DNA of 64,000 nt from Gemmatimonadota bacterium (GTDB taxonomy: Bacteria; Gemmatimonadota; Gemmatimonadetes; Gemmatimonadales; GWC2-71-9), in NCBI GenBank assembly GCA_039591655.1, contig JBDHDE010000003.1:1-64000 (forward strand). Reading direction: 5' to 3'. Positions 4,798 through 27,629 of this stretch are shown piece after piece. Numbering within the stretch: the first letter of the stretch is position 1; the number at the start of each line of letters is the position of its first letter. Under the pieces are notes generated by a model that saw nothing but the letters and a program-made list of their open reading frames with translations, had not been told where the DNA came from and made no database searches. The position numbers and the translations under genes were made by a program.

Positions 4798-4798
4798 G

Positions 4799-9883: not shown

Positions 9884-10264
9884 CTAGGTGGAGGCGGTGG
9901 CTCCCAGCACCAGGCCGCTCACGAAGGGGATCAACCAGAGCGTCCAGACCACGACGCTGATCCGGTGGAATGTGTGGATCGCCCGCTCATTGCGGGAGAC
10001 CAGCACCTGTGTCGCCCAGCCGGCGTGCGCGAGCATGAGGAAGAGAGCCGTAGCCCCGGTGATGTTGTGGAGGGTCAGCTCGAACCCTGGCGTGAGCCGC
10101 CGCATCAGCTCGGTACCGACCGCGTCGAACGCGAAGCCCAGCCAGAACATGACGGCGTGCCACGGCTTGAGGATGCCGCTGAGACGCTCACTCCACACCC
10201 CCACCGAGTAGAAGACGAGGGCCGCAATGATCAGCACGATGGACCATGCGATCATCGGCGTCAC
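9884..10264 (-). CDS. HsmA-family (TIGR03987-like) heme-associated membrane protein
   Basis: Four TM helices; FYSVGVWSE..LKPWH, FDAVGTELM, HNITG, LMLAHAGWA, FHRIS..VW.LWLIPF. Confidence 0.75.
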   Translation of the reverse strand: MTPMIAWSIVLIIAALVFYSVGVWSERLSGILKPWHAVMFWLGFAFDAVGTELMRRLTPGFELTLHNITGATALFLMLAHAGWATQVLVSRNERAIHTFHRISVVVWTLWLIPFVSGLVLGATAST

Positions 10265-10819
10265 CTAGGCGCCGACCTCTGTTGCGAGCCTCTCCGCCAG
10301 AGCGTGGTAGCGCTCGTGCACACCCTCTCCACTCCGCTCGCGCTCCACCCGCTCGAAGTCTAGCAGCATCCGCTCGTGGCCGCCCCGGGGAATCAGCTGC
10401 TCCGCCATCGGAAACAGCACGTTGTCCTCCTTGGCGATGTGCTGGCGTAACAGGGCCACATACCCTTGGGCGTTGCGTACCACGTCGGAGCGGGCAGCGG
10501 CGTCGCCGCCCTCCAGGCGTTCGGCCGCCTCGCGCATGGCCCGGGTGTAGCTGCGCCCCTCTTCGTGCTCCGCTAGCATCACGCCGATGGGCCCTGCCTC
10601 GGTGGGCATGCCCAGGGCGGCCAGCGCCTCGAACAGGACCCCCTCCTCCTTGTGGTGATGGCAGCCGTCGGCGAAGCTGCTGATGAAATCGGCGGCTTCC
10701 AGGAAGAAGCCGGGCCGCACGGCGTCCCCCCGGTCCAGTGCGTGCGCCGCCGTCTCCAGCGCCTCCAGCACGCGCTCGATCACCCGGTGCTCGTCCATGA
10801 GGATCTTCGTCGCTCTCAT
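10265..10819 (-). CDS. Hemerythrin (HHE) domain protein
   Basis: LMDEHRVI, HHHKEEGVLF, MLAEHEEGR, HIAKEDNVLFP. Confidence 0.9.
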   Translation of the reverse strand: MRATKILMDEHRVIERVLEALETAAHALDRGDAVRPGFFLEAADFISSFADGCHHHKEEGVLFEALAALGMPTEAGPIGVMLAEHEEGRSYTRAMREAAERLEGGDAAARSDVVRNAQGYVALLRQHIAKEDNVLFPMAEQLIPRGGHERMLLDFERVERERSGEGVHERYHALAERLATEVGA

Positions 10820-10894: not shown

Positions 10895-11713
10895 CTACCC
10901 CCTGCGGCGGAACAGCACCCACCCGGCGAGCCCCGGCAGCGCTACCCACCCCACGAGGGAGAGCGCCGCCAACGCGGCGGTGCCGCCCGCCCCGAACCGC
11001 TCGATGATCTTCGCGCCCACCGGACCGAGCAGCGAGAGGTCGGCGTCGAGGGCGCTCACCACGCCCATGCGGAAGGCCTCGACGGGGTTCAGGAAGCTCC
11101 AGGTCACGAGGAGCTGCTCCGGGAGCCCCCACCGGATGAACGCCAACATGACGCCCAGCGTCCCCAGGGCCACGAGAACGAGCCACACGAGGATGCCCAG
11201 CGTCATGGCCCGGGCGCGGGAGCTGGTGACGGTGGAGAAGCACAGTCCCAGGGCCACAAACACCAGGGCAAGGAGCGCCACGAAGGCGTAGAGCACGACG
11301 ACCAGCCCGGGGGGTACGCCACGCAGCACCGCTACGGCTCCCGCCACCCCGAAGCCCACGGTGAGAGACAGCAGGATGGCGACGCTCACGCCGCCGAGCT
11401 TCCCGGTATAGACCTCGCCGAACGTGACCGGCTGGGCGAGAATGTACTCCAGCGCGCCGCTCTCCCGGTCCTCGGCGATGGATGCTGCCGCGGGGAACAG
11501 CGCGAGGAGCGGCACGAACAGCAGCGCTAGATGGACCAGTCCGGTGAACGCCTTGGCGAACCCGCGGTAGCCGTAGATCGTGGTGTCGGCCAGCCCGAAG
11601 GTGACCAGCAGTAGGCCGCCTGCCAGAAACACCGCCGAGTAGGCGAGGAACCAGCGTGCGCGCAGCGCGCCCGCGAGCTCCCGCTGCACGAAGAGCGCTG
11701 CGCGGGCGATCAT
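10895..11713 (-). CDS. nosY: NosY ABC permease
   Basis: EDRESGALEYILAQP, NPVEAFR, multi-TM; ATGA overlap with nosF. Confidence 0.88.
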   Translation of the reverse strand: MIARAALFVQRELAGALRARWFLAYSAVFLAGGLLLVTFGLADTTIYGYRGFAKAFTGLVHLALLFVPLLALFPAAASIAEDRESGALEYILAQPVTFGEVYTGKLGGVSVAILLSLTVGFGVAGAVAVLRGVPPGLVVVLYAFVALLALVFVALGLCFSTVTSSRARAMTLGILVWLVLVALGTLGVMLAFIRWGLPEQLLVTWSFLNPVEAFRMGVVSALDADLSLLGPVGAKIIERFGAGGTAALAALSLVGWVALPGLAGWVLFRRRG

Positions 11714-12654
11714 GGAGCCTCCCCCTCCGCGGCCTCGAGTCCCAGCACCCCCTCCAGGAGTTGGTGCAGCGACGGGGTCTCGGTCCAGAAATCCTCCACG
11801 GGGATCCCGGCGCGCTTGAGCTCCAGCAGCACGTCGACCCGCGCAGTGTGCTCCGCTTGTACGCCCAGAGCCGTGCCGTTGGCCAGCACGGTGGAGAGCT
11901 CGATGGTGGTTTGGAGCTGCTGCCGCGCGCGGTCGCGCATCGCGGGCGGGACCTTGATCCACAAGGTCACCGCGTCCTCCACCCGCTCCCTGAGCTCCTG
12001 CATCCGGCCGTCGAACGCGATGCTGCCGCGGTGCAGCACCAGCAGGCGATCCGCTACTGCCTCCACGTCGGCGAAGCGGTGCGAAGCCAGCAGGATGGTG
12101 GTTCCATCGTTCACCTGCTGGAGGGAGCGCAGGAACTCCCGCCGGGCCTTGGCGTCGAGGTTGGCCGTGGGCTCATCGAGCAGGAGCAACGGTACCTCGG
12201 CCCCGAGGGCCAGGGCCAGGAGCGCCTTTTGTAGCATGCCACCGGAGAGAGTGCGCACCGCCTTCTCGCCGTGCTCCGACAAGGGGAGATCCAGCGCCTC
12301 GAGACGTGCCTCGACCGCCTCGGGAGCCGTTCCCCTCAGGCGCGTGAAGAAGTCGATGACCTCCCCCAGCGTGCCGTCGAAGGACGGGGCGCGCTGAGGC
12401 ACGTACCCCAGCCGGCTGCGGGCCTCCCTGCCGCCCCCGTGCACGTCCCGGTCAGCCACGCGCAGTGCGCCCTCGAAGGGCACGAGCCCCAGGAGGCAGC
12501 GCATGAAGGTGGTCTTCCCGGCGCCATTCAAGCCGAGCAAGGCCACGCGCTCCCCTTGGGCCACCTCCAGATCGAGGTGGTCGAGGATCGTGTGGCTCCC
12601 GAAGCGCTTGGTCAGCCCGACGGCGTGAATCACCGGCGTTGCCTCTGGGCGCAT
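11710..12654 (-). CDS. nosF: NosF ABC ATPase
   Basis: GLNGAGKTT, LSGGM, LLLDEPT; lies between nosD and nosY. Confidence 0.9.
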   Translation of the reverse strand: MRPEATPVIHAVGLTKRFGSHTILDHLDLEVAQGERVALLGLNGAGKTTFMRCLLGLVPFEGALRVADRDVHGGGREARSRLGYVPQRAPSFDGTLGEVIDFFTRLRGTAPEAVEARLEALDLPLSEHGEKAVRTLSGGMLQKALLALALGAEVPLLLLDEPTANLDAKARREFLRSLQQVNDGTTILLASHRFADVEAVADRLLVLHRGSIAFDGRMQELRERVEDAVTLWIKVPPAMRDRARQQLQTTIELSTVLANGTALGVQAEHTARVDVLLELKRAGIPVEDFWTETPSLHQLLEGVLGLEAAEGEAP

Positions 12655-12682
12655 GGCAACCGGGCCGTTTCGCGCCTCCCGA

Positions 12683-14029
12683 TCACCGCGACCTCCTCAA
12701 GGGCTGCCGGAAACGCGGCACGATTGCCGCCGCCATCACCGCGACTGCAAGGAACACCACCGCCGTGCCGGGCCTTCCCCTTCCTCCTTCCCCCAATCCG
12801 GCGTCCATCGCCCGCTCGGTACGTGGAGCCGAGTCGGCTACTATCGGCTCGGGAGAGAGCAGCGGAAACACCCGGCTCAGCGTGTTCAGCGCCGTGACCC
12901 CCAGGCTCAGGTTGAATACCTGCAGCGCCTCGTGCTTGGCCATCAGGTCGTCCGAAAGGCGCTCGAACACGAACGGCGTGTCGCCGTGCCCGTCGCCGTC
13001 GGCATCGAACCCGGCGTACTCGGACCAGTAGTTGTCGTGCCAGCGGTTCTTGGTCGCCGTGCCGCCGCCCGACACGCCCACCGGCTGAACGTTGTCGATG
13101 AAGTGGTTGCCCTCGAACCGGTTCGAGTGCACCGACGGCAACAGCCACACCCCGATGTCGTTGTACGCGATCACGTTGTTGTGAAACTGGTTCTCCACCC
13201 CCACGCTGGTGGGTGAGTTGTCGATGGAGATCCCGATGGTGTTCTTCACCAGCACGTTGCCCTCGGCGGTGATCCGATCGGCGTCCTTGAACCCCAATCC
13301 GCGGGCGGCGGTCCCCCGAGCGTCGGCGAACACGTTGCGGCGGAACGTGATGTCATCGGAGTACATGATGAACGCACCGATGTGATTCGCGATGAACGCG
13401 TTCTCCTCGAACAGATTGCGGTCGGAGTACATGTAGTGCAGCCCGTAGCGGCTTTCACTCACCCGGTTGCCGCGTACCACGGTGCCGTTGGAGAACCAGA
13501 TCACCACGTCCCGGACGCGGTGCAGCGTGTTGTCCTCGATGCGCCCGTCGTGGCTGTACCACAGCCGGATCCCGTCGCCCCGCAGGGGAAGGGCCAGGTT
13601 CTTTCCCTCGATCTCGTTGCGCCGGATCAGGGCGGCGTGGCTCTGCTTGAGGTAGACACCGAACAGCACGTCCTCCAGCCGGTTGGCCTCGATCACCAGA
13701 CCGTCGGCCCGGGACGCGAGGATGCCGGCGTGCTCCCGGGACTGATCGGAGCCCGAACCGCGGATGGTGAACCCGCGCACGACGGCGGGCGCGTTGATGG
13801 TGAGCACGATGCCGCGGCGGTCCCCGTCGATCACCGCCCCAGGCTCGCCAAGCAACACGACCGGCTGAGCCACCACAGGATGCTCGTGGTACACGCCGGC
13901 CGCGACCCGGATGGTGTCGCCCGGTCGTGCTGCCGCTAGGGCCTCCCGGATCGAGGCGTAATGCCCGCCCGGCCCCACGGTGAGCTGCGCAGCCTGAAGG
14001 GCCAGCGCGAGGGCCGCGGTTGTGATCAC
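12683..14029 (-). CDS. nosD: NosD periplasmic beta-helix maturation protein
   Basis: RGDGIRLWYS, SRYGLHYMYS, NYWSEYAGFDADGDGHGDTP; GTGA overlap with nosB. Confidence 0.92.
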   Translation of the reverse strand: MITTAALALALQAAQLTVGPGGHYASIREALAAARPGDTIRVAAGVYHEHPVVAQPVVLLGEPGAVIDGDRRGIVLTINAPAVVRGFTIRGSGSDQSREHAGILASRADGLVIEANRLEDVLFGVYLKQSHAALIRRNEIEGKNLALPLRGDGIRLWYSHDGRIEDNTLHRVRDVVIWFSNGTVVRGNRVSESRYGLHYMYSDRNLFEENAFIANHIGAFIMYSDDITFRRNVFADARGTAARGLGFKDADRITAEGNVLVKNTIGISIDNSPTSVGVENQFHNNVIAYNDIGVWLLPSVHSNRFEGNHFIDNVQPVGVSGGGTATKNRWHDNYWSEYAGFDADGDGHGDTPFVFERLSDDLMAKHEALQVFNLSLGVTALNTLSRVFPLLSPEPIVADSAPRTERAMDAGLGEGGRGRPGTAVVFLAVAVMAAAIVPRFRQPLRRSR

Positions 14030-14631
14030 GCCTGCCCGGCGTCCTTCTGGCGGCGCCACTCCAGCAGCACGATCGCAGGGCCCATGAGCCCAGCGAGGCC
14101 CATGAGGATGGCGCCGGCAGCCGGCCAGCTCGAGACGGCGAACTGTCCCACTTGGGTGGTCCCGATGAAGGCCGGTGTGAACGGCTCGATGTTCAGGGGC
14201 GCGTTGGGAGCGAGGTTGTGGCCGTACTCGAACAGCCAGTGCTGCAGGGTGTAGAGCATCACCGCCCCGAACACCACGAAGTCGATCCATCCGATGGCGG
14301 CGACGGCCATCCAGCCGACCACTACCGTGAGCAGGGCGTACAGGAGAAACCGCAGGATGAAGAAGGGGATGAAGCGGAACTCCGGGAACTCGTCCGCCTC
14401 GATCTCCTTCATCCCGATATAGTGGTTGAGGATGTTCACCTCGCGCACGTCCCCCGCCACCGTGGTCGGGTAGATCTGCATCTGCAGCCCGTTGGGGTAC
14501 TGCGGCGCTCGCAGCTCGATGGTCCACGTCGGCAGGAATATGCACGGCAGCAGCGCCAGCGTGGCCAGCACCATGAGCGCGCGGCTCGTGCGTGAGAGCC
14601 CGCCCTGGAAGAAAGCCGTCAGCCTATCCAT
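14026..14631 (-). CDS. nosB: NosB-like membrane protein of clade II nos clusters
   Basis: PTWTIELRAPQYPNGL, NILNHYIGMK, WLFEYGHNL; directly after nosZ. Confidence 0.85.
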   Translation of the reverse strand: MDRLTAFFQGGLSRTSRALMVLATLALLPCIFLPTWTIELRAPQYPNGLQMQIYPTTVAGDVREVNILNHYIGMKEIEADEFPEFRFIPFFILRFLLYALLTVVVGWMAVAAIGWIDFVVFGAVMLYTLQHWLFEYGHNLAPNAPLNIEPFTPAFIGTTQVGQFAVSSWPAAGAILMGLAGLMGPAIVLLEWRRQKDAGQA

Positions 14632-14670
14632 AGAGAACGTCGTTCCGGCTAGTGGGTTGTCGTTTGCCTC

Positions 14671-14712
14671 GGGGGGTCTCCCCCCCCGCCCACCGGCGAC
14701 GGGGGAGGGCCC
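14671..14712 (-). terminator. GC hairpin between nosZ and nosB (partial terminator or mRNA stabiliser)
   Basis: Minus strand CTCCCCCGTCGCCGGTGGGCGGGGGGG stem-loop; no clear U-tract. Confidence 0.35.
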
Positions 14713-14725
14713 TTGTCCTGCCAAA

Positions 14726-16687
14726 CTACCCGCGAGGCTCGACCAGCAGGTAGCCCATCATCTCGAGGTGCAGAGCGGAGCAGAACTCGGTGCAGTAGAA
14801 CGGGAAGACTCCCGCCTTATCCGCCACGAACTCGACGGTCTGAGCCTCACCGGGCTCGATGCTCAGGTTGATGTTGTACTTCGCAATGCCCAAGCCGTGG
14901 GTCGCGTCGTGCGCCTGCTCGATGTTGGTGATATGAATGACCACCCGGTCGCCCTGCCGCACCCGGATGTACTCCGGCGTGAAGTGGCTCCGGATCGCTG
15001 TCATCTGCACGGTGACAGTGTTGCCCCTACGGGTTACGCCCTCCTGCCCCGCCAGCACGGCGTCGCTCGACGGGGACATCGTACCGGGGCTCCACCCGAC
15101 CTCGGGGTACACGCGGAACGGCTCGAGTTTATCGGCCTTGATGATCTGGGCGTAGTGGGGCTCCCCGATGCCGATGGGCATGTCGTAGATCAGCTGCATC
15201 TCATCGCCATCGATGTCGACGAGCTGGAAGTTCTGGGGCAGCAGCGGCCCGACGTCGTTGAACCGGTCCAGGGACCATTTGTTCATTGCCACCAGGTACT
15301 TGCCATCCGGCGACTTGGTGTCGCCCTCGGCCGCCGCCACGTGACCCACGTTGTAGTGCACACTCAGGTCGTCCACGACCTCGAGCGGGTCGAGGCACCA
15401 CTTGGTGACCTTGGTGTCGAGGAAGATCGAGGTGTAGGCGCAGCCCTCGTCGTCGAACTGCGTGTGCAATGGGCCCAGGCCGACCTCGAGCTGCCCGTCT
15501 ATGACCGAGGCGAAGTCGAGGATCGGCACTCCGTACGGATCGTTGCCCGCGAACGAGCCGGCGTCGATCGCCTGCTTCATCTTCTCCCACGAGTAGAGCG
15601 TCACGTGCGGATCCAGCTTGCCCGACACGACGATGGTCCCGCCGTCGGGGGTGACGTCGGCCCCGTGGGGGCTCTTGGGCTCGGGCACGAGGTAGAGAAG
15701 CCCCTGCTCGATCGCGACGTCGATCGGGATGATCCTGCGCCCGTTGCGGGTGCGGGTCATGCCGCGCGTAGCGGCGACCTCAGCCGCCTTCTCCCAGTTG
15801 AGGACGTGGAGGTAGTCCATGTCGTTCTGGGACGCGCCGCTCTCGAATGGAGGATTGCCGTCCTCCACGCCGCCGGTGGCCATCTCGCTGTTGAACGAGT
15901 TGAGGAACGCCCAGCCGAACGACGGGCCCTTGCCCGCGTCGGACAGGTCATGCCAGTAGGGCGGCAGCTCGATGGAGAAGCTGGCCGACTCGTCGATGCG
16001 CCCGCTCTCCCGGTCGAACTTCCATAGGGTCACGAGACCGCGGTAGTCCTCTTCGTAACGGTCTGTGTCGGCGTAGTCCGTCCACAGGGGGATCGAGTAC
16101 TGCGCCGCCTCGATGACGTACTCTGTGTTGGGAGTGACGAAGGCCCCGCCGTGGTTGGTGCCCATGTTCTCGTTCGTCACGATCTGCTTGGTCTCGAAGT
16201 CACGTAGGTCGATGACGGCGATGCGCGGGTTGGCCTTGTCGTTGATGAACAGGAACTCGCCATCGTAGTCGCCGTCCGTTTCGGACAGCGCAGGGTGGTG
16301 GCTGTCACCCCAGGAGATGTCGTGGCCCGCCATGCCGGCGTTCGCGAGCATCTCCCTGTGCTCCTCGGAGCCGTACCCGAACCCCTGCCACGGCTCCGGC
16401 GTGAAGGCTGCGATGACCTTGAGCAGCCGCATCGACGGGACCCCGATCACCAGGACCTGCCCGGAGTGGCCGCCCGAGCCGAACATGATGTACTCGTCGA
16501 ACTGCCCCGTCGGCTGGTACGTCTTGACGGCGGCGACGACGTCGGCCTCGGTGAGACCACGCTCGCGGGCGATCGCGCCCACGTCGGCGGTCCCACCCGG
16601 GCCGGCGCAGGATCCGAGTCCTGCCACGACGATCACCGCGGCAGCGGCGATGAGGCCGAGCGCCCACTTGAGACCCTTCATGCGCAT
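14726..16687 (-). CDS. nosZ: Nitrous oxide reductase, clade II (Sec/lipoprotein-type signal)
   Basis: SGGHSGQ; CuZ His motifs DSHH, NHG, SPHG, GPLH, VGH, EPH; CuA FYCTEFCSALHLEM; no twin-arginine motif; lipobox-like LGSC. Confidence 0.97.
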   Translation of the reverse strand: MRMKGLKWALGLIAAAAVIVVAGLGSCAGPGGTADVGAIARERGLTEADVVAAVKTYQPTGQFDEYIMFGSGGHSGQVLVIGVPSMRLLKVIAAFTPEPWQGFGYGSEEHREMLANAGMAGHDISWGDSHHPALSETDGDYDGEFLFINDKANPRIAVIDLRDFETKQIVTNENMGTNHGGAFVTPNTEYVIEAAQYSIPLWTDYADTDRYEEDYRGLVTLWKFDRESGRIDESASFSIELPPYWHDLSDAGKGPSFGWAFLNSFNSEMATGGVEDGNPPFESGASQNDMDYLHVLNWEKAAEVAATRGMTRTRNGRRIIPIDVAIEQGLLYLVPEPKSPHGADVTPDGGTIVVSGKLDPHVTLYSWEKMKQAIDAGSFAGNDPYGVPILDFASVIDGQLEVGLGPLHTQFDDEGCAYTSIFLDTKVTKWCLDPLEVVDDLSVHYNVGHVAAAEGDTKSPDGKYLVAMNKWSLDRFNDVGPLLPQNFQLVDIDGDEMQLIYDMPIGIGEPHYAQIIKADKLEPFRVYPEVGWSPGTMSPSSDAVLAGQEGVTRRGNTVTVQMTAIRSHFTPEYIRVRQGDRVVIHITNIEQAHDATHGLGIAKYNINLSIEPGEAQTVEFVADKAGVFPFYCTEFCSALHLEMMGYLLVEPRG

Positions 16688-16794
16688 ACGGTTACCCCCG
16701 GGAACGTAAGTGAATATGGCAGATACGATTAGGTCAGAGCAGCTCAGGCGGGTAGGAGGGCCCGCTCTGCGCTGGCGTCCGAGTTCTTGCCTGC

Positions 16795-16823
16795 TTGCCT
16801 CAAAGATAATGCGATATTATCAT
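16795..16823 (+). promoter_or_regulatory. Promoter of the Rrf2 gene with inverted repeat in the spacer
   Basis: TTGCCT-N17-TATCAT with GATAAT-N5-ATTATC at 16805-16821. Confidence 0.6.
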
Positions 16824-16887
16824 GAAGTTGTCGTGAATTTAGCTGTAGGTCCCACGCCCGCAAGCCCCCAGACCTGGAGCCGCACTG

Positions 16888-17331
16888 GTGCTGTCGGGAA
16901 CGGCTGAGTACGCCCTCCGGGCGGTGGTGTGCCTTGCGCGGCGGCCGGGGGGCGGCCCGGTGCGGGCCAGCGACCTTGCGGGTGCGGTGGACGTGCCGCG
17001 GAACTACCTGGGGAAGATCCTCCATGACCTGGTGCGGGCCGGCATCCTCAAGTCGACCAGGGGCAAGCACGGCGGCTTCCAGCTGGCGGTGCCGGCTCAT
17101 CAACTGCCGCTGATCAGGGTGGTCGGGCTGTTCGACGAGATCGGTAGGGAGCAGCGGCGCTGTCTGCTCGGGCGGCCCGAGTGCTCTGACGGGGATCCCT
17201 GTCCGGTGCACAGCCGGTGGAAGGAATGCGCCGACCAGGTGCAGCGCTTCTTCGGTGAGACTACGGTGGGTGATGTACTGGACGGGGGTCGTCTGGGCAG
17301 CGGCGACCCGGCCCCGGGGCCCTGTGACTAG
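16888..17331 (+). CDS. Rrf2-family transcriptional regulator (Fe-S Cys motif)
   Basis: LSGTAEYALRA, YLGKILHDL, STRGKHGGFQL, CLLGRPECSDGDPCPVH. Confidence 0.92.
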   Translation: MLSGTAEYALRAVVCLARRPGGGPVRASDLAGAVDVPRNYLGKILHDLVRAGILKSTRGKHGGFQLAVPAHQLPLIRVVGLFDEIGREQRRCLLGRPECSDGDPCPVHSRWKECADQVQRFFGETTVGDVLDGGRLGSGDPAPGPCD

Positions 17332-17473
17332 CACTGCGCTGGTGGCGGCGGGCTCCTCCCGCCGGGGCCGGAGCGCCGGTTTCTCAGCAGCACCAAACAG
17401 ATGGGGCCCGACCCTGGCGCCGTGACAACGGCCAGCGCCGGGGCGGGCCCTTCATCCTGCCAACGCTGCCGCG

Positions 17474-17911
17474 CTACTGCCGCAAGTACTCGTACATGGC
17501 CCGGGCTTCCTGGCTCGTGACGCCCATGTTCACCATCGGGGTCATGTACTCCGCTAGGAGCTCCTTGGCCGCATCGTCGTTCTGGAGCATCGAGTCCGGC
17601 CGGACGATCATGGCGATGACCCAGTCGAACTGGCGGCGCTCGGTCACCCCCTGGAGGTCGGGACCCGTAAGGCGACCCTCTCCGATGGTATGGCAGCCCA
17701 CGCAGCCCTTGGACTGGAAGTAGCCCTCTCCCTCGCTCGCGAGGGCGGCGTCCACCGGCCCGGTGGGAGCCTCCATCGACATCGGCTCGGCAGCCTCCTC
17801 CATCGCCGGCTGCTCGCCCGCCATCGCGGCCTCGTCGGCCGGGGCACCCTCTCCGCCGCAACCGGCGGCCAACACCAACAGCAGCAGAAACGCGCTATGT
17901 CTGACCTTCAT
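17474..17911 (-). CDS. Monoheme cytochrome c lipoprotein
   Basis: Lipobox LAAGC, acidic linker, CVGCH, GPDL, distal Met region MTPMVNM. Confidence 0.9.
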   Translation of the reverse strand: MKVRHSAFLLLLVLAAGCGGEGAPADEAAMAGEQPAMEEAAEPMSMEAPTGPVDAALASEGEGYFQSKGCVGCHTIGEGRLTGPDLQGVTERRQFDWVIAMIVRPDSMLQNDDAAKELLAEYMTPMVNMGVTSQEARAMYEYLRQ

Positions 17912-18123
17912 GGTTGCTTTTCACTCCTAGATGGTTGTGTTGGACTCTCACGATGGTATCGCACGTCCGCGGTGCGCCGACCCTGCGCCACGCCGGGAGT
18001 GCAACACAGGGAAGAAACTATCTGACGGTACCGGAGGAAGGGAGGGGGGCAGGGATGGCCCCGGCCCCCTTGGAGAATCGGCGTATCAGGCAGTGCCGCA
18101 GGCTGCGGCGCAGGCGCTGGCCG

Positions 18124-18510
18124 CTACTCCCGGCGCAGGCTCCAGACGTACGCAGCCACTGCCTCGAGTTGGCTGTCCGACAGCCCGCTGCCCCCCCTGG
18201 GCGGCATGACGGACCCGGTCGACGACTTGTCCGCTGTCACTCCCTTCGTGATGCTGTGCAGGATGCCCTTGAGGGAGCCGTCGCTGTGCTGCCACTCGTC
18301 GTCGGTCAGATCGGCCCCCAGGTTGGGCATGCCCTCGGCGTTCTGTGCGTGGCATACGGCGCAGACCCCCGCGCCTTTGAACAGGGACTCCCCTTCGGCG
18401 ATCATCTCCTGGGTGACCCCCTCCGGGAGCTCCTCCTGAGCGAGGACCGCCGGCGCGGCGACGAGCAGCGCTGCCCATGCCAGGGCCAGTCCACAGAACC
18501 GGTGCCGCAT
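18124..18510 (-). CDS. Periplasmic monoheme cytochrome c
   Basis: Signal peptide, CAVCH, GADLTDDEW, MPPRGG; GGAGG 7 nt upstream of ATG. Confidence 0.9.
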   Translation of the reverse strand: MRHRFCGLALAWAALLVAAPAVLAQEELPEGVTQEMIAEGESLFKGAGVCAVCHAQNAEGMPNLGADLTDDEWQHSDGSLKGILHSITKGVTADKSSTGSVMPPRGGSGLSDSQLEAVAAYVWSLRRE

Positions 18511-18527
18511 GTGCATTCCTCCAGGTA

Positions 18528-19742
18528 CTAGAAGGCGGTGACGAGACCTACCGTCCACCGTGTCCGGTCCCGCTCGATGTCGTACATGCCTTCGAAGGCC
18601 AGCCGGAAGTTACGCTTGGCAAGCCAGCCGGCGCCAGCGGTAACGGTCTGATACCGCTCGATGTCGGCGAGCTCCCCCAGGCGCACGGTGAGGATCGGGC
18701 GGCTGCAGTCCACGATGTTGTACAGCGCCACGCCGTACCAGCGACTCCCCGGTTTGTGCAGTATGAGTTCAGCCAGGCCGCCGTTGGTGTAGGCCGTTTC
18801 CTCGTTCGGCTCGAACAGTGGGTTGGTGTCCTGCCGGTGGATGTACTGGAGGTTGAGCTCCACGGCCCCCGCCGAGATCGTGGCGTCGGCCCCTCCCATC
18901 CACAACGTATTCGTCACTGTCGGCGCGGTCTCGTCTGGGGCCCCGTCCTGCCGCCCGTAGTACCCCATCGCCCCCAACCGGACGTTCGGTGTGAGGTCCC
19001 GCGTCAGGTGCCCGAAGAGGTTCTTCATCGGATCGTTGTCCAACCGGCGGTTGGGCTCGGCTTCGCCGCGGCCATTGCCGTTGATCACCTCTGCCGTGAG
19101 GGTGAAGCCGGCGGCGTCACCGATGGCCATGATGCCACGGTCGTAGGTCAGGTCCGCCGGCTGGAGCCCAACCCGGGCACGGTAGACCGCGTAGTCCTGG
19201 AACTCGAGCCTGAGCTCCCGCTTGAACATCGGGTCGGAGACCTGGAACTGGCCCACAACGCCGTCGAGGGTCGCACCCCCGATGTCGTTCCAGTAGATGA
19301 AGGCGTCCTCGATGCCCCCGATCTCGCCGCGCTCGAACAGAAAGAAGTAGAAGTAGTACGAGAGGCTGTTCGAGATCGTCCCGCCGGAGAGGAGCTTGAG
19401 GTTGTAGGGACCCTGGAGGTCGGTGGCGACGTTGCCCCCGGTGTACCCCTGGAGGTACGCATCGAGCCGCACGGCCAATGGGACGTCCTTGAGGAGATGC
19501 AGTAGCCGGTCTCCCGTATCGAGCGTGTCGCGCGGTATCTCCTGGGACGCCATGCGGAACCCGTTTCCCGCGAACTCCTCTCCGAATGCCGAGAGCTTGG
19601 GAGCTACCGTGTGGCACAGGCTGCAGCTCACTTTGTATTTGCGCGCGAAGGTGGGGATCGGCTCGCCGCTGGCCACCGCTGCCGCCGGATGCAGCATCAG
19701 GATGAGAGATACGCATGCACCGATACAGAGAATCCGCGTCAT
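18528..19742 (-). CDS. Cyc2-like fused cytochrome c / outer-membrane porin
   Basis: After the signal peptide: IPTFARKYKVSCSLCHTVAPKLSAFGEEFAGNGF (Cyc2 pattern PxFAR...CxxCH...PxL...G..F...G[FY]); beta-strand-rich body ending in Phe. Confidence 0.8.
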   Translation of the reverse strand: MTRILCIGACVSLILMLHPAAAVASGEPIPTFARKYKVSCSLCHTVAPKLSAFGEEFAGNGFRMASQEIPRDTLDTGDRLLHLLKDVPLAVRLDAYLQGYTGGNVATDLQGPYNLKLLSGGTISNSLSYYFYFFLFERGEIGGIEDAFIYWNDIGGATLDGVVGQFQVSDPMFKRELRLEFQDYAVYRARVGLQPADLTYDRGIMAIGDAAGFTLTAEVINGNGRGEAEPNRRLDNDPMKNLFGHLTRDLTPNVRLGAMGYYGRQDGAPDETAPTVTNTLWMGGADATISAGAVELNLQYIHRQDTNPLFEPNEETAYTNGGLAELILHKPGSRWYGVALYNIVDCSRPILTVRLGELADIERYQTVTAGAGWLAKRNFRLAFEGMYDIERDRTRWTVGLVTAF

Positions 19743-19852: not shown

Positions 19853-20074
19853 CTAGTGGTGTTGCGGATGCGTCCGGTGGGAGCGGGTGTTGAGCCGGAA
19901 CAGCTCGTACAGCGGGCAGTGGTGCGTCAGGGCCGTGGCCGCCAACACGAGGGCCAGCAACGCCGCCGCCAGAGACAGGATCACCTGCTCGATGAGGACC
20001 ACGGCAACGACGAGGGACACCACCGCCAGGCATCCCCGAATACACCCATCCACCATTCCGACGTTGGCTTGCAT
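19853..20074 (-). CDS. DUF2892/YgaP-like small membrane protein
   Basis: NVGMVD..IR, two TM helices, CPLYELFRLNT. Confidence 0.8.
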   Translation of the reverse strand: MQANVGMVDGCIRGCLAVVSLVVAVVLIEQVILSLAAALLALVLAATALTHHCPLYELFRLNTRSHRTHPQHH

Positions 20075-20121: not shown

Positions 20122-20172
20122 ATTAAGGCAGCCGTAACCCCGCGTGAAGGACCGATGGGCTGTTTGTGAAGG
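20122..20172 (-). promoter_or_regulatory. 11-bp-periodic direct repeats (OmpR/PhoB-type site candidate)
   Basis: ATTAAGG (20122), CGTAACC (20133), GTGAAGG (20144), GTGAAGG (20166), upstream of the DUF2892-Cyc2-cyt c genes. Confidence 0.4.
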
Positions 20173-20193: not shown

Positions 20194-21594
20194 CTAGGCG
20201 GTCGGGGGGGTGCGGGGCAGCTCGAGGGCAACGGCAAGCCCCCCTTGGATGCTCCGTCCTGCCTCGATCCGGCCGCCGTGCGCCTCCACGATGGCGGCTG
20301 CAAGCGTGAGTCCCAGACCTGCGGCCGCGCCGGCGCGGGTGCGTGCGTGGTCACTCCGATAGAACCGCTCGAAAAGGCGCGGCAGCACTTCATTGGGCAG
20401 CCCCGGCCCATCGTCCTCCACCGTTATCCTCACATTTGCGGAATCGGCGGTCACACCGGCACACACCCGCGTGCCCTCGGGTGTGTGCTTAATGCCGTTG
20501 TCGAGCAGTTGATCGATCACCAGAGTCAGCATCTTCGCGTCAACGGAGGCCGTGGCGTCGCCGGCTCCCTGTGCTGCCGTGAGAGCGATCTTTCTGCCCT
20601 CGGCGCGTGCCTGGGCCTTGCGCACTGCTCGGGCGACCAGGTCCCTCACGTCACGAGTGATCCGCTCGGGCTTGAGCGTGGCGGAGTCGAGGCGCGCCAA
20701 CATGACCAGGGACTCGCTGAGAGACGCCAGGTGGTCGACCTCCTCCAATACACTGGAGAGTACGGCACGGTACTCGTCGGGGCGCCGCTCGCCCCGTAGG
20801 GTGACCTCCAGCTCGCCGCGCATCGCGGTGAGTGGTGTGCGGAGATCGTGGCCTGCGTCGGCGATCATGCGGCGCTGAGTCTCGAACGCCTGGTCGAGGC
20901 GCTCCAGCATGCCGTTGAGCACCTTGACCAGTCCCGCGAACTCCTGCACATCGGCGTGCTCGGTGATGCGCTGGCCCACCGCGCCGGGCCTGATTCCCTC
21001 TGCCTGTTGGGTGATCTCCTCCACCGGTGTCACGCTGGAGCCGGCGAGCCAACCCGCTCCCAGGGCGCTTGCCGCGGTCCCCAGGAGGACGGTCCCCAGC
21101 AAGAGGAGCAGCACCCGGCGATTGGCCAAGTGCAGCGGGCGCAGTGATGCCGCTACCTGGACCACTACCTGGTCCGCGCCACCCCTCAGAGGTACCGCCC
21201 CGTAGTACGAGCGAACGGCTTCGGGCTCCCACTCCTGGGTCGTCCACACCTGATCGCCGTCCCTCGCCCGCTCGAAGCTGTCCGTGTCCAGGGGAAGGCC
21301 GCTGGCCAGCGGCGTGTTGGTCGCCAGGACGGTGTGGTCCTCGGCTCGCACCACCACGAAACGGTTCACCGCGTCGACGAACCCTTCGAGATCCGACGGC
21401 TCCGCGTGCACCGCGATGGGAAAGCCGGCACCGATAACGGCGAACTCGAGCTGCGCCACGGCAGCGAGCCCGTGGTCCAGCTCCTCACGTAGGATTCGCT
21501 GGGCGCCGAGGTATGCCCACAGCGCGATAAACAGGAGCGCAATGAAGATGGTGAGGGAGAACCGCACGGCGAGCGTGCGGCGCAGGGAGTACAT
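20194..21594 (-). CDS. Membrane sensor histidine kinase (HAMP-HisKA-HATPase)
   Basis: Two TM helices, DAGHDLRTPL, LLDNGIKH, DDGPG, FERFYR, GLGL. Confidence 0.93.
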   Translation of the reverse strand: MYSLRRTLAVRFSLTIFIALLFIALWAYLGAQRILREELDHGLAAVAQLEFAVIGAGFPIAVHAEPSDLEGFVDAVNRFVVVRAEDHTVLATNTPLASGLPLDTDSFERARDGDQVWTTQEWEPEAVRSYYGAVPLRGGADQVVVQVAASLRPLHLANRRVLLLLLGTVLLGTAASALGAGWLAGSSVTPVEEITQQAEGIRPGAVGQRITEHADVQEFAGLVKVLNGMLERLDQAFETQRRMIADAGHDLRTPLTAMRGELEVTLRGERRPDEYRAVLSSVLEEVDHLASLSESLVMLARLDSATLKPERITRDVRDLVARAVRKAQARAEGRKIALTAAQGAGDATASVDAKMLTLVIDQLLDNGIKHTPEGTRVCAGVTADSANVRITVEDDGPGLPNEVLPRLFERFYRSDHARTRAGAAAGLGLTLAAAIVEAHGGRIEAGRSIQGGLAVALELPRTPPTA

Positions 21595-22277
21595 CAGTCT
21601 GTGTGGCCGTTCTTCTTGAGGCAGAATCCGACGCCACGAACCGTCTGGATCAGTCCGTCGAATCCCGCCTCACGCAGCTTGCGCCGCAGGTTTCCAACGT
21701 GGACATCGACGACGTTGCTCTCCGGATCGAAGTGCATGTCCCACACCTTCTCGAGCAACTCCGTGCGGCGCACCACGTCTTCGGGGTGCAACATGAAGTG
21801 CTCGAGGAGCTGGAACTCCCGCGGCGTGAGATCGAGGAGCTCCTCGCCGGCCCAGGCTTTGTGCTTCAGCCGGTCCAGCTCCAGCGGTCCGTAGGACAGC
21901 CGATCGAGCCGTGCTGCACCGCCCCGGCGCACCAGCGCGCGCAGCCGCGCCAACAGTTCGTCGAACTTGAACGGCTTGGTGAGATAGTCGTCGGCGCCGG
22001 CATCCAGGCCGCGCACCACGTCCTCGGTCGCGTCCCGAGCAGTGAGCATGAGAATGGGCGTGTTCCGCCCCTCGCGGCGCAACTCAGAGGCCACCTGTAG
22101 GCCGTTCTTCTTGGGGAGCATCAGGTCGAGCAGGATTGCGTCGTAGTCGTTGATGTGGGCGAACACGGTGGCCTCTTCGCCATCCTTGGCGACGTCCACT
22201 GCGTAGCCCTCCTCCCGAAGGCCCATCTCGATGAAACCAGCGACCTTGCGGTCGTCTTCGACTACGAGGATCCGCAT
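21594..22277 (-). CDS. OmpR-family response regulator (CusR/CopR-like)
   Basis: MRILVVEDD, LLDLMLP, GADDYLTKPF, wHTH NVVDVHVGNLRRKL...TVRGVGF. Confidence 0.95.
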   Translation of the reverse strand: MRILVVEDDRKVAGFIEMGLREEGYAVDVAKDGEEATVFAHINDYDAILLDLMLPKKNGLQVASELRREGRNTPILMLTARDATEDVVRGLDAGADDYLTKPFKFDELLARLRALVRRGGAARLDRLSYGPLELDRLKHKAWAGEELLDLTPREFQLLEHFMLHPEDVVRRTELLEKVWDMHFDPESNVVDVHVGNLRRKLREAGFDGLIQTVRGVGFCLKKNGHTD

Positions 22278-22313
22278 TGTGGACAACCCTAGCCGTGACG
22301 GGCTATATGGTTG

Positions 22314-22342
22314 TTTAATCGAAGGTTAACGCCTCTTTATGA
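22314..22342 (-). promoter_or_regulatory. 11-bp-periodic TTAA-like repeats upstream of the response regulator
   Basis: TTTAATC (22314), GTTAACG (22325), TTTATGA (22336). Confidence 0.4.
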
Positions 22343-23578
22343 TGCCGCGACCTGGCGCGGAACCCGCAGGATGAAGCGCGCTCCCTTGCCGACCTGGCTC
22401 TCCACGTTGAGCTCGCCGCCCAGAAGCCGCGCCAGCTTGCGCGAGAGCGCCAGACCCAAGCCCGTCCCCCGCTCGGTCTGGTGTCCGGCCCGCTCGAACG
22501 CCTCGAAGATCACCGCCTGCTGCTCGGAGGCGATGCCCTCACCCCGATCCACCACGTCGAACCGGAGGGTACCGTCCGTGACGCGTAGCTCGACGTCGAT
22601 CGCCTCGTCCGGTGGGCTGTGGCGCACCGCGTTGGTGAGCAGGTTGATGAGAATCTGGCGCACGCGCTGCGGGTCGGTGCGGCAGGTGACGGCCTCGTCG
22701 GGTCCGGTGAGCGTGATCTTGACACCGCGACGGTCGGCGGCGGGCTCCACGGTGGACACCGACTCTCTTACGATGCTCCACGCGTCGGAGTCCTTGATCA
22801 TCGGCTCGAGTTTGTCGGCCTCTAGTCGGGAGAGATCCAACAGGTCCTCGAGCAGCGTGAGCGCACGCTCGGCTGATTCCTGCACCTCCAGTGCGGAGCG
22901 CGGAGTATCGGGCGCGGTCTTGCGGATCCACAGCTCGGTCCAGCCGTGGACGGCGGTGAGCGCGTTGCGCAGCTCGTGGTTAGTCATGGCGAAGAAGCGC
23001 TCCCGCGAGTGGTGCAGCTGCCGCAGCTGCTTCAGCAGGCCCTCCCGCTCGGAGAAGAATCGCGCGTTCTCCACCGCGACCGAGGCGTGGCTGGCCAGCA
23101 TGACCGCGAAGGCTTCGTCCTCCGGCGTGAACTCCGAGCCGCCTTCCTTTTCCGCGAGGTAGAGGTTCCCGATCGTTTCGTCCCGACCGATGATGGGGAC
23201 GCCGAGGAAGGACCGCATGTGGGGATGGTGCTCGGGGAAGCCGTACGCGCGCGGGTCGCGGGTCACGTCCCTCACCCGCAGGGGCTTGGGCTCCCGGATC
23301 AGCGCGCCGAGCACGCCCCTGCCCCGGGGCAGTTCGCCGATCTTGCCGTGGGCCTCCTGGGGGAGCCCGCTGGTCACGAAGGTCTCCAGCGCCGTGCCGC
23401 TCTCGTCGAGGATGCCGAGGGCCGCATACTGCGCGCCGATCACGAAACGGGCCGACTCCACCACCTCCTGGAGCACGCGGTCCAGTTCGTGTTCGGCGGT
23501 GATGCGGATGGTGGCCTGGGAGAGGCGCTCGACCCGCTGCCAGATCTCGTGGTTGTCCGCCCGGGAGGTTGGCGACAT
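22337..23578 (-). CDS. Cytoplasmic GAF-domain histidine kinase, DosS/DosT-like heme GAF
   Basis: GRGVLGALIREPKPLR...GFPEHHPHMRSFLGVPI...GNLYL; HELRNAL; NLLTNAVRH; GTGLGL. Confidence 0.85.
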   Translation of the reverse strand: MSPTSRADNHEIWQRVERLSQATIRITAEHELDRVLQEVVESARFVIGAQYAALGILDESGTALETFVTSGLPQEAHGKIGELPRGRGVLGALIREPKPLRVRDVTRDPRAYGFPEHHPHMRSFLGVPIIGRDETIGNLYLAEKEGGSEFTPEDEAFAVMLASHASVAVENARFFSEREGLLKQLRQLHHSRERFFAMTNHELRNALTAVHGWTELWIRKTAPDTPRSALEVQESAERALTLLEDLLDLSRLEADKLEPMIKDSDAWSIVRESVSTVEPAADRRGVKITLTGPDEAVTCRTDPQRVRQILINLLTNAVRHSPPDEAIDVELRVTDGTLRFDVVDRGEGIASEQQAVIFEAFERAGHQTERGTGLGLALSRKLARLLGGELNVESQVGKGARFILRVPRQVAAS

Positions 23579-23718: not shown

Positions 23719-24450
23719 GTGGATCCCACGCTGACCGTCTTGCTGTACTCGTCCCTGGCCGCGGCAGCGGCCGGGCTCGGGATTGCACCGCTGATGGTTA
23801 GCAAGCGCCTCGCCCTGGCCCGGATTGGCTGGGCCAACGCCTTGGCGGCGGGGCTCATGCTGGGCGCCGCCTACGCCCTGATGGTGGTGGGGATCCAGCC
23901 GCTCCCCGTGACTGCGGCCGCAGGCTCTCTCCTGGGCATCGGCTTCGTGTACTGGACTCACGCGGTGTCGGGCACGGCGGACATGGACCTCAACCGCCTG
24001 GAAGAGACCAGCGTCGATTACGGCTACAAGGTCCTGTTGGTCACCGGGCACCACGCCGCCGCCGAGGGGATCGCCATCGGCGCGGCGTTCGTGGTGAGCG
24101 TTCCGTTCGGCATCTTCATGGCCCTGGCCATCGCTGTGCACAACGTTCCCGAGGCCACGGTGCTGTGCTCCATCCTCACGGGCCGCGGCGTGCGGCTGAG
24201 GGATGCCGCCGGGCTCGCGGTGGCGACCAATGTGAGCCAGATCCTCCTTGCAATCGTCACGTTCGCGATCGTGACGGCCGCGCCCGGAGTGCTTCCCTGG
24301 GCGGTGGGCTTTGCCGTGGGAGCGCTGGTCTACCTGGTGATGGCCGAGCTGCTGCCGGAGTGCTACCGGCAGGCGGGACCCACGAGCATTGCCCTCGTGA
24401 CGATCGTTGCGATGGGGATCGTGGTTCTGTTGAGCAACCGGGGACTTTGA
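23719..24450 (+). CDS. ZIP (ZupT/GufA) family metal transporter
   Basis: AAGLML, HAAAEGIAIG, AIAVHNVPEA, ELLPE. Confidence 0.85.
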   Translation: MDPTLTVLLYSSLAAAAAGLGIAPLMVSKRLALARIGWANALAAGLMLGAAYALMVVGIQPLPVTAAAGSLLGIGFVYWTHAVSGTADMDLNRLEETSVDYGYKVLLVTGHHAAAEGIAIGAAFVVSVPFGIFMALAIAVHNVPEATVLCSILTGRGVRLRDAAGLAVATNVSQILLAIVTFAIVTAAPGVLPWAVGFAVGALVYLVMAELLPECYRQAGPTSIALVTIVAMGIVVLLSNRGL

Positions 24451-25190
24451 CGGTGCCGGTCCTGGACCCGGTGCTCCTCGTCTTTCTCTATGGGCTCTTC
24501 ACGGCCCTCGCCACGGGACTCGGGGCGCTCCCCTTTGCCTTCGTCCGCTCGGTCTCGGCACGGGCCGTGGCGTACGCCAATGCCATCGCCGCGGGACTGA
24601 TGCTGGGGGCGAGCTTCGGGCTCGTCGCCGAGGGCACGCAATACGGAGCGTGGCAGACACTCATCGGCGCCGTGCTCGGCGTGCTGTTCATCCTGGGGAC
24701 GCAGCAGTACCTCAAGACGCGCCAGATCGAGTTCGGGAGGGTACGGGGCGGCGGAGCGCGTCGCATGCTCCTCATCATGGTGGTGATGACGGTGCACTCC
24801 TTTGCGGAGGGCGTGGCGGTCGGGGTGGCTTTCGGCGGGAGCATGACCCTCGCCGTCGCCATCGTGTTGGCTATCGCCGTGCACAACATTCCGGAGGGGT
24901 TGGCGATCAGCGCGGTGTTCCGCCCGCGCGGCGTCTCGGTGGCTGGGTGCGCCGGGTGGAGCATCGTCTCATCGCTGCCGCAGCCGTTGATGGCGGTGCC
25001 GGCCTACCTGTTGGTCGAGACGTTCACGTCCGTGCTTCCTTACGGCATCGGGTTCGCCGCGGGCGCCATGGTGTTCATGGTGTTCGTGGAGCTACTACCG
25101 GAGGCGTTCGAGGTGGGCCGCAAGCCCCACGTTGCGCTCCTGACCTCCGCCACCCTCGTGGCGATGGTCGTGTTCCAGCAGTACCTGTAG
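24447..25190 (+). CDS. ZIP (ZupT/GufA) family metal transporter, second paralog
   Basis: ATGLGALP, VHSFAEGVAVG, AIAVHNIPEG, GFAAGAM, ELLPEA; TTGA overlap (alternative GTG at 24453). Confidence 0.9.
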   Translation: MTVPVLDPVLLVFLYGLFTALATGLGALPFAFVRSVSARAVAYANAIAAGLMLGASFGLVAEGTQYGAWQTLIGAVLGVLFILGTQQYLKTRQIEFGRVRGGGARRMLLIMVVMTVHSFAEGVAVGVAFGGSMTLAVAIVLAIAVHNIPEGLAISAVFRPRGVSVAGCAGWSIVSSLPQPLMAVPAYLLVETFTSVLPYGIGFAAGAMVFMVFVELLPEAFEVGRKPHVALLTSATLVAMVVFQQYL

Positions 25191-26968: not shown

Positions 26969-27441
26969 ACGCCCCCCTCCACGATCAACGTTGCGCCCAT
27001 GTTGTGATGACCGAGGCCGCAGTACTCGTTACACGTGATCAGGTACTCGCCCGGTTCGTCGAACGTCATGGTGAACTGGCTGACGTAGCCCGGGATCACC
27101 ATCGTGTTGCCGTTCGTCCCTACGATCTGAAAGCCGTGGACGACGTCGGCGCTCGCGATCCGGAACGTGACCGGTGTGTTGGCGGGCACCCTGATCTCGT
27201 TCGGCTGGAATGCGAACATCATGGCGAGCATCGTCACTTCGACGCTGCCGTCTGGATTGGTCGTCACCCCGCGCTGGGCGAAGCGTGCGTCGGACCAGAC
27301 GTTGCGGGGGTCGACGGTCTCTACGTGGCTGGGCGGCAGCCGGCCCTGGGACACGGTGGCGAATGCGATCGCGCCGAGGAACACCACGATGATCGCGCCT
27401 GCGCCCCACATCCAGATCCGCTCGTATAGATGCACATGCAT
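26965..27441 (-). CDS. cbaB: ba3-type oxidase subunit II (CuA)
   Basis: YERIW, DVVHGF, CNEYCGLGHHNM. Confidence 0.92.
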   Translation of the reverse strand: MHVHLYERIWMWGAGAIIVVFLGAIAFATVSQGRLPPSHVETVDPRNVWSDARFAQRGVTTNPDGSVEVTMLAMMFAFQPNEIRVPANTPVTFRIASADVVHGFQIVGTNGNTMVIPGYVSQFTMTFDEPGEYLITCNEYCGLGHHNMGATLIVEGGV

Positions 27442-27447
27442 GGGCCG

Positions 27448-27588
27448 TTACCTCATCACCGCGCCGCGCGGGAGGTAGATGAACAGGAAGAAGGCAAACC
27501 ACCCGATGACGAACAGCGCGCCGTACAGCCCGACGAGGGCCAACGTGCCACGCGGGTGCTTGCCGACCTCGGAGTGCTGATCGCTCAT
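27448..27588 (-). CDS. ba3-type oxidase subunit IIa
   Basis: 46 aa, PRGTLALV...W...F..YLPRG single TM; AAGGAG RBS. Confidence 0.8.
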   Translation of the reverse strand: MSDQHSEVGKHPRGTLALVGLYGALFVIGWFAFFLFIYLPRGAVMR

Positions 27589-27629
27589 GAGCTTCTCCTT
27601 ACTGGGAACGGACGTGAACGGACCGTGAA

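Follow-up and report, generated by a model that had tools for sequence, protein, structure and literature searches.

The 64,000-nucleotide window analyzed here (contig JBDHDE010000003.1, positions 1 to 64,000, of the Gemmatimonadota bacterium assembly GCA_039591655.1) contains a gene for a Cyc2-type fused monoheme cytochrome-porin (18528-19742, minus strand), followed on the same strand by two cytochromes c and, across an Rrf2 regulator, by a clade II nitrous-oxide (N2O) reductase gene cluster headed by nosZ. An initial annotation of this DNA had proposed that the arrangement encodes an electron-uptake chain from Fe(II) or another extracellular donor through the porin and cytochromes to NosZ or a ba3 oxidase. 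The protein identities stood up to closer analysis; the linkage of porin and nosZ is not generally conserved, and the porin appears to be an optional part of a modular respiratory island.

A Cyc2-type cytochrome-porin with an RKY motif variant

Cyc2 proteins are defined in 10.1101/228056 by an N-terminal PXFAR[Q/K][T/Y] motif, a single CXXCH, a PXL, a length of at least 365 amino acids and an OprP/OprO-like 16-strand barrel. The 404-residue product of 18528-19742 begins with a segment that by eye resembles a signal peptide, with a helix modeled at residues 2-16, and its length lies within the Cyc2 range. Upstream of the heme site stands P30-T-F-A-R-K-Y36, an RKY variant of the motif; the longer Cyc2 consensus AXPXFAR is matched at six of its seven specified positions, with P28 replacing the alanine. 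The only CxxCH is C40-S-L-C43-H44, and the PXL follows four residues on as P48-K-L50. The motif quoted in the initial annotation is contained in residues 29-62, and the last residue is the Phe that it had reported. Among 120 close homologs, exactly one CxxCH was present in all 120, the full motif in 113 and the terminal Phe in 118, a pattern not due to chance; C40, C43, H44 and P48 are invariant.

An AlphaFold2 model computed from a 91-sequence alignment (mean predicted local distance difference test score, pLDDT, 88.8) has 16 long strands spanning residues 89-403, with short helices surrounding the heme site. OprP, which has been reported as the template for Cyc2, was the top structural match of the model (Z 25.1, root-mean-square deviation 3.0, 300 aligned residues; VIA-align rank 1) and was ranked second by Foldseek (E 2e-13). 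The beta-rich body read from the sequence, and the barrel that structure prediction had been suggested to check, are thus both borne out. Sequence searches of Pfam, NCBIfam and the PDB returned nothing for the porin, and Pfam and NCBIfam likewise gave no match for two homologs with an RQT-type motif. We conclude that the gene does encode a further member of the known Cyc2-type cytochrome-porin family; the product is predicted to form an outer-membrane 16-strand pore carrying an N-terminal heme domain.

In a FastTree tree, a long branch parted all RKY/RRY-type sequences from the RQT-type sequences, and the Gemmatimonadota sequences grouped together. An RQT-type homolog resembles the porin over only about 58 N-terminal residues, and a plasmid search returned only weak RQT-type homologs. 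Because the porin shares the RKY motif with Cyt572, the Cluster 3 reference, which begins YPGFARKY (PMC13741234), and because the RQT-type sequences separate from it, the porin likely belongs to Cyc2 Cluster 3. One Gemmatimonadota Cyc2 has been assigned to this cluster (PMC9671151), whose function is described by Keffer et al. (10.1101/228056) as the most uncertain of the Cyc2 clusters. Related Gemmatimonadota loci (L010-L030) carry other Cyc2-like paralog families, RQT-type at 11 loci and further RKY-type at 7. Three matches, at G296:C8:104169-105221, G460:C1:445702-447624 and G474:C61:913-1986, contain internal stops: two TGA in a nosZ-like match, one TAG in a nosZ match and one TGA in a porin match.

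Genes surrounding the porin

The gene for a periplasmic monoheme cytochrome c (cytA, 18124-18510, minus strand) starts 17 nt past the porin stop, and its product has an invariant distal Met102. The next gene encodes a lipoprotein-like monoheme cytochrome c (cytB, 17474-17911, minus strand). Both products scored above the PF00034 cut-off, in agreement with the two cytochromes c originally described on the porin strand. The rrf2 gene (16888-17331, plus strand; PF02082, TIGR00738), whose product has a C-terminal Cys3-His pattern, is convergent with cytB and divergent from nosZ (14726-16687, minus strand). NosZ is a clade II, Sec-dependent enzyme (TIGR04246, 845 bits versus a cut-off of 625) and scores below the cut-off of the model for twin-arginine translocation (TAT). 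As rrf2 is convergent between cytB and nosZ, a single porin-to-nosZ transcript is not expected here. The gene order nosZ-B-D-F-Y held, with nosD (12683-14029; TIGR04247), nosF for an ATP-binding cassette (ABC) ATPase (11710-12654) and nosY for an ABC permease (10895-11713), all on the minus strand; the membrane protein gene directly after nosZ (14026-14631, minus strand) has no family match and can be called nosB by its conserved position only. A nosL-like copper chaperone is not apparent in the nos cluster (10895-16687), to which this inspection was confined. At 22 of 25 checkable window-type nosZ loci a cytB stands upstream of nosZ; cytB thus appears to travel with nosZ and is likely its direct electron donor.

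On its other side the porin is preceded by a gene for a small YgaP-like (DUF2892) membrane protein (ygaP, 19853-20074, minus strand; PF11127), the first gene of the porin operon. Beyond it lies the conserved core of what we call the island (20194-23578, minus strand), consisting of a GAF histidine kinase, an OmpR-family response regulator (21594-22277) and a membrane sensor kinase. Two ZIP-family transporter genes follow (23719-25190, plus strand; PF02535), then the genes for subunits I and II and a 46-amino-acid IIa-like peptide of a ba3-type (family B) cytochrome c oxidase (25346-27588, minus strand), for which the top PDB match was a ba3 oxidase (E 1e-125). Hemerythrin-domain and HsmA-family proteins are encoded directly after nosY (9884-10819), and a hemerythrin gene recurs in this position in G005, G004, G508 and G144. 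A DtxR-FeoA fusion and FeoB are encoded at 3763-7063; in G001 these genes stand directly after cytB, in the place that the nos block occupies here.

Linkage of the porin and nosZ among relatives

Conserved synteny of cyc2-like genes with nosZ in relatives had been put forward as a test of the proposed chain. Downstream sequence of 3 kb or more was available for 86 distinct porin loci, and a nosZ gene stood beside the porin at one of them. In a family sample of 400 genomes, the porin was found in 91, nosZ in 188 and both in 60, leaving 128 of the 188 nosZ genomes without the porin. Positions of both genes were listed for 52 genomes: they were adjacent in three (G005, G164 and G401), in three more they shared a contig at distances of 66 kb to 1.3 Mb, and in the rest they lay on different contigs. 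Contig breaks can hide adjacency, possibly so in G089.

Every relative with a NosZ sharing 75% or more identity with the window NosZ was then inspected, 26 in all. The nos genes were contiguous with the island in 16 and lay outside it in 8; G089 and G339 were set aside for contig ends. Together with the window's own genome this gives 17 island-plus-nos loci, of which four have the porin in place (the window, G005, G164 and G401) and 13 lack it, three of the latter in genomes that carry the porin elsewhere. The 13 porin-less loci retain cytB without exception and cytA in 12 cases. Five genomes of the same genus (G002, G003, G004, G007 and G008; 78-97% complete) have the island and nos with no porin match anywhere, and at their ygaP-cytA junctions, which are clean, no porin remnant was found (three tblastn matches, E 0.16-0.45). 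Eight others (G001, G205, G441, G462, G411, G098, G124 and G490) have the island with the porin, and the flanking sequence retrieved for them gave no nosZ match. In a midpoint-rooted tree of kinase and regulator sequences (no clade test), which covered 22 of the islands, the porin-bearing ones fell on deep branches, and the tree implies at least four separate porin losses. A single entry of nos into the island within the genus was considered and dropped, since G164, G189 and G401 show the same arrangement in other genera.

Relatives therefore do not share a conserved cyc2-nos operon, and the island is modular. Because most relatives with the same block lack the porin, these data suggest that the porin is optional and that the locus does not encode a dedicated iron-to-N2O pathway.

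Cytochrome partners of the porin family

A search for the porin family returned 2087 proteins at E ≤ 0.001 among 8000 candidates, and 168 porin loci were examined, 152 of them distinct at 97% identity. Porins at least 50% identical to the window porin came from Gemmatimonadota, and those below 50% from Bacteroidales, Ignavibacteria, Aminicenantes, Krumholzibacteria and others. A gene for a pentaheme cytochrome of about 455 amino acids lies directly upstream of the porin at 53 of 63 loci below 50% identity, versus none of 72 at or above it; the order was noted among loci L058-L118, L195-L198 and L249. A tblastn search of the window's own genome (G000) gave no pentaheme match. In Gemmatimonadota the usual downstream neighbor is cytA, directly after the porin at 37 of 62 close loci, and the two partners are mutually exclusive, occurring together at none of 55 loci. 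The exchange of the pentaheme for cytA may mark a change in the direction of electron flow.

The pentaheme sequence contains five CxxCH motifs and gave weak matches to the c552 structure 5ZE8 (E 5e-10) and to NF040886 (31-41 bits, cut-off 250). A function as an MccSep-like polysulfide reductase was rejected. That enzyme type is recognized, according to PMC13510729, by a heme-ligating Cys plus a Sec or Cys, with C239/U325 as the catalytic pair, whereas 46 aligned pentahemes conserve only the ten CxxCH cysteines; the pentaheme of the distant loci thus shares five CxxCH with ExtKL-MccSep/c552 (5ZE8) and lacks the extra C239/U325-type cysteine. Complex prediction for the porin, cytA and two hemes gave a score of 0.01 against a mark of 0.32, which speaks neither for nor against binding. 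At L279 (G086) and L280 (G469) the porin gene stands beside genes for 8-, 16- and 18-heme cytochromes, to which L280 adds a cytochrome b-c fusion. A heme-less OprP/O-type porin gene (PF07396) often directly follows cytA in the island, at 15 loci including some duplicates (for example L126:8011-9087, L132, L237, L243, L258 and L260), and the window's own genome has a homolog on another contig (C5:64992-65987).

A promoter repeat shared by the porin operon, nosZ and the ba3 oxidase genes

A direct repeat of three TTCAC-like half-sites with an 11-bp period (20122-20149, minus strand) precedes the ygaP-porin-cytA operon and is present in 12 of 12 aligned relatives, with or without the porin. Related repeats lie upstream of nosZ (TTCAC-N6-TTCAT, 16822-16837, minus strand), as a putative response-regulator box, and upstream of the ba3 oxidase genes (TTCAC-N6-TTCAC, 27614-27629, minus strand). 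Half-site spacing of 11 bp is typical of OmpR-family regulators. All 7 same-genus sequences retain the first half-site of the nosZ repeat, and conservation of the second is weaker. An A/T-rich inverted repeat between rrf2 and nosZ (16806-16820), conserved in 6 of 6 same-genus relatives, is a putative Rrf2 operator.

A repeat matrix was built from the relatives alone and scanned over 1594 intergenic regions of the window's own genome. Three half-sites at 11-bp spacing occurred in 17 of the 1594 regions, against 1-8 regions when the spacing was changed and 0-3 when the sequence was shuffled (12 shuffles); two half-sites at this spacing occurred in 19 regions, compared with 1-5 and 0-5. Taken alone, the window has five matches (16822, 20149, 22314, 27630 and 29142), a number reached by 5 of 100 shuffles and hence borderline. 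Besides the porin operon, the in-window repeats precede nosZ, the ba3 oxidase genes, usp and the response regulator gene itself, and targets elsewhere include Mo-oxidoreductase/NrfD operons, multiheme cytochromes, hypB, PPDK, transketolase and some unrelated genes. The response regulator is 83-99% identical among islands. The repeat marks a candidate global OmpR-type regulon of this lineage, comprising about 17-19 intergenic regions. A simple promoter/terminator scan found one promoter-like site and no terminators.

Electron donors and wider metabolism of the genome

The sole RuBisCO match in the genome is a 373-amino-acid protein (C2:106187-107308) with a KDDH motif that we take to be probably form IV-like. 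Because the only match looks form IV-like, autotrophy is not indicated, although the family searches did not extend to the reductive tricarboxylic acid cycle (rTCA) or the Wood-Ljungdahl pathway. No NirK scored above cut-off and no NrfA turned up in this genome, which is 95% complete (nirS, nor, nap and nar were not searched by family). The genome encodes an A-type oxidase as well as the ba3 oxidase. Large gene clusters for multiheme cytochromes, with as many as 18-19 CxxCH, also encode NrfD, molybdopterin, Rieske and cytochrome b proteins; they lie at C10:39484-60004, C19:2444-23473 and C109:1-4773, and are possible further extracellular or anaerobic electron-transfer systems.

The initial annotation had stressed that the window holds no nosR, Rieske or cytochrome b donor module. 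Rieske, cytochrome b and NosR proteins were indeed not found among the 33 window proteins scanned (those up to position 41167), but the genome elsewhere has three cytochrome b and four Rieske matches, paired on C10 and C91, and an operon on C18 whose gene order and Qrc-like matches fit an alternative complex III (ACIII), as which we interpret it. According to PMC11409646, nosR marks clade I nos clusters and its absence is normal for clade II. Since nosR is a clade I marker and donors lie elsewhere, the lack of a donor module in the window carries little weight.

A proposed role of the porin as an auxiliary electron inlet

The explanation that we favor, at a little better than even confidence, is that the porin is an optional auxiliary electron inlet of the respiratory island and not a required donor to NosZ. 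The heme would be reduced by a small soluble reductant entering the pore, either Fe(II) or some other reduced compound outside the cell, and would pass a single electron to the His/Met cytochrome CytA and then to a general periplasmic cytochrome c pool. Electrons would leave this pool through the ba3 oxidase when O2 is low, or through the lipoprotein CytB to NosZ. The main source of electrons for NosZ itself would likely be quinol, by way of the ACIII-like complex and the Rieske/cytochrome b complexes encoded at other loci; this would explain why the porin can be lost. The OmpR-family regulator likely activates the porin operon, the ba3 oxidase genes and nosZ through the 11-bp-spaced TTCAC repeats, with Rrf2 likely adding repression on nosZ alone, and the island is probably switched on at low oxygen. 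Because the promoter repeat is shared and the porin and nosZ co-occur among genomes, it is plausible that the porin operon, nosZ and the ba3 oxidase genes are induced together within a broad regulon.

Several observations weigh against this explanation. In the family sample, nosZ is present in 60 of 91 porin genomes (66%) versus 128 of 309 others (41%), and across the phylum in 25 of 36 versus 91 of 264, with the proviso that kin are not independent. Adjacency of the porin and nosZ also recurs in three genera (the window's own genome, G005, G164 and G401), which would suit a closer link. The assignment of CytA as the acceptor is not secure, because loci that have lost the porin retain cytA and because neither the pentaheme nor cytA is present at 20 of 54 close porin loci. 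Moreover, in the 91-row porin alignment the conservation of His or Met residues other than H44 and the start Met does not exceed 56%; of six same-genus relatives, only three have a nosZ repeat scoring above the threshold; and the closest family of the response regulator is the heavy-metal TIGR01387 (222 bits, below the cut-off of 279), which bears on the signal sensed. As related genomes do not count as independent samples and both genes abound in several genera, we tentatively read the co-occurrence as a shared respiratory lifestyle.

Three alternatives were weighed against the auxiliary inlet. Electrons could instead run outward, the heme pore reducing extracellular Cu(II), Fe(III) or a similar species and so feeding, for example, metal uptake that serves the island's two copper enzymes. 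This would fit the two ZIP transporters in the island, the nearby FeoB and DtxR-FeoA, the LTXXQ/metal-resistance proteins in or near the island and the TIGR01387-like regulator. Outward flow is also easier to imagine in the wider family (Bacteroidales, Aminicenantes and similar), where the porin stands beside the pentaheme related to low-potential c552. The Gemmatimonadota branch, however, has swapped the pentaheme for a His/Met monoheme cytochrome c, a type that is usually high-potential. In addition, the repeat precedes energy-metabolism genes and not metal efflux genes, and in genus g143 unrelated genes separate the zip genes from the porin; we regard the metal-supply explanation as unlikely. 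Measured Cyc2 potentials range from -130 mV (PMC13692758) up to +560 mV at pH 4.8 (PMC13741234), and because of this wide range the direction of electron flow cannot be read from membership of the Cyc2 family.

Rather unlikely, in our judgment, is a role without bulk electron transfer, in which the porin, as a channel plugged by its heme, would gate, bind or sense some small ligand (such as an anion, NO or sulfide) when oxygen is low. Pore-region charged residues are strongly conserved (12 acidic and 10 basic in 91 diverse porin sequences), and the lack of a conserved second His/Met ligand, the heme-less OprP-type porin often found in the same island and the many porin loci without a cytochrome neighbor would all agree with such a role. 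Against it, the porin across the family usually adjoins a c-type cytochrome, pentaheme or CytA, and three Cyc2 relatives, one per cluster, oxidize Fe(II) in vitro (10.1101/228056).

Quite improbable is the chain originally proposed, in which Fe(II) electrons pass from Cyc2 through CytA/CytB to NosZ and the clustering is due to that coupling: the recurrent adjacency (possibly also in G089 across its contig break), the genome co-occurrence, the promoter repeat common to the porin operon and nosZ, and the placement of porin, cytA, cytB and nosZ on one strand in G164 and G401, with no rrf2 match between, are outweighed by the rarity of nosZ at porin loci, the many island-plus-nos loci and nosZ genomes without the porin, the convergent rrf2 here, the quinol-fed donors of the genome, co-occurrence p-values that overstate the case among non-independent kin, and the uncertain function of Cluster 3. 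A dedicated electron-uptake route into N2O reduction thus is possible, weakly supported and not favored; what survives of it is a looser link through the shared repeat and genome co-occurrence.

The auxiliary inlet can be extended to a broader proposal, which we consider doubtful though worth stating. One regulator would co-induce a Cluster 3-type Cyc2, the ba3 oxidase and clade II NosZ, so that an extracellular reductant, Fe(II) or other, would drive respiration of N2O and trace O2 in a mixotrophic, non-denitrifying N2O sink; the system would have arisen when the swap of the pentaheme for a high-potential monoheme cytochrome reversed the direction of the porin.

Significance and comparison with known systems

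Cyc2 matches are widely taken as markers of iron oxidation, and carriers of clade II nosZ as N2O sinks. The two occur together here without fixed coupling, and finding such genes side by side in a single genome is therefore not enough to infer a pathway. The locus is well suited to testing the least understood Cyc2 branch: it offers natural pairs with and without the porin in one genus, a candidate acceptor in CytA and a defined putative promoter box. If Fe(II) does feed NosZ, this would be a mineral-driven route of N2O removal in sediments.

In the literature on Cyc2 and nos, as far as its accessible text goes, no description of this island or its promoter repeat turned up. The taxa of the porin family are those in which Cyc2-like genes have been published: Cyc2 is reported in marine Gemmatimonadota, where Fe oxidation via sulfocyanin was proposed as linked to NosZ (PMC11316326), and FeGenie Cyc2 calls exist for Aminicenantes, Krumholzibacteria and Bacteroidetes (10.1101/2020.09.22.307553, PMC6344600, PMC5566968). 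The available portions of these accounts of genes from Gemmatimonadota, Aminicenantes, Krumholzibacteria and Bacteroidota metagenome-assembled genomes do not include the present gene order, modular island, promoter repeat or partner swap.

Compared with A. ferrooxidans Cyc2, Mariprofundus Cyc2PV-1, Ghiorsea Cyc2TAG1_1 and Leptospirillum Cyt572, the porin has the same features of a signal peptide (here judged by eye), PXFAR[Q/K][T/Y] motif, single CXXCH, PXL, length of at least 365 amino acids and, as predicted here, 16-strand OprP/OprO-like barrel, and as in known Cyc2 pathways a small periplasmic cytochrome is encoded downstream. It differs in that its host is not a known iron oxidizer and in that the porin is known from sequence and a model. 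The nos genes resemble clade II clusters with NosC-type cytochromes in the Sec-type NosZ, the membrane protein after nosZ, nosDFY, the lack of nosR and, in most relatives, a monoheme cytochrome upstream of nosZ. They differ from those clusters in lacking nosGH, Rieske and cytochrome b genes at the locus, with no nosL seen, and in lying within a two-component island that also includes ba3 oxidase genes and, optionally, a Cyc2-type porin.

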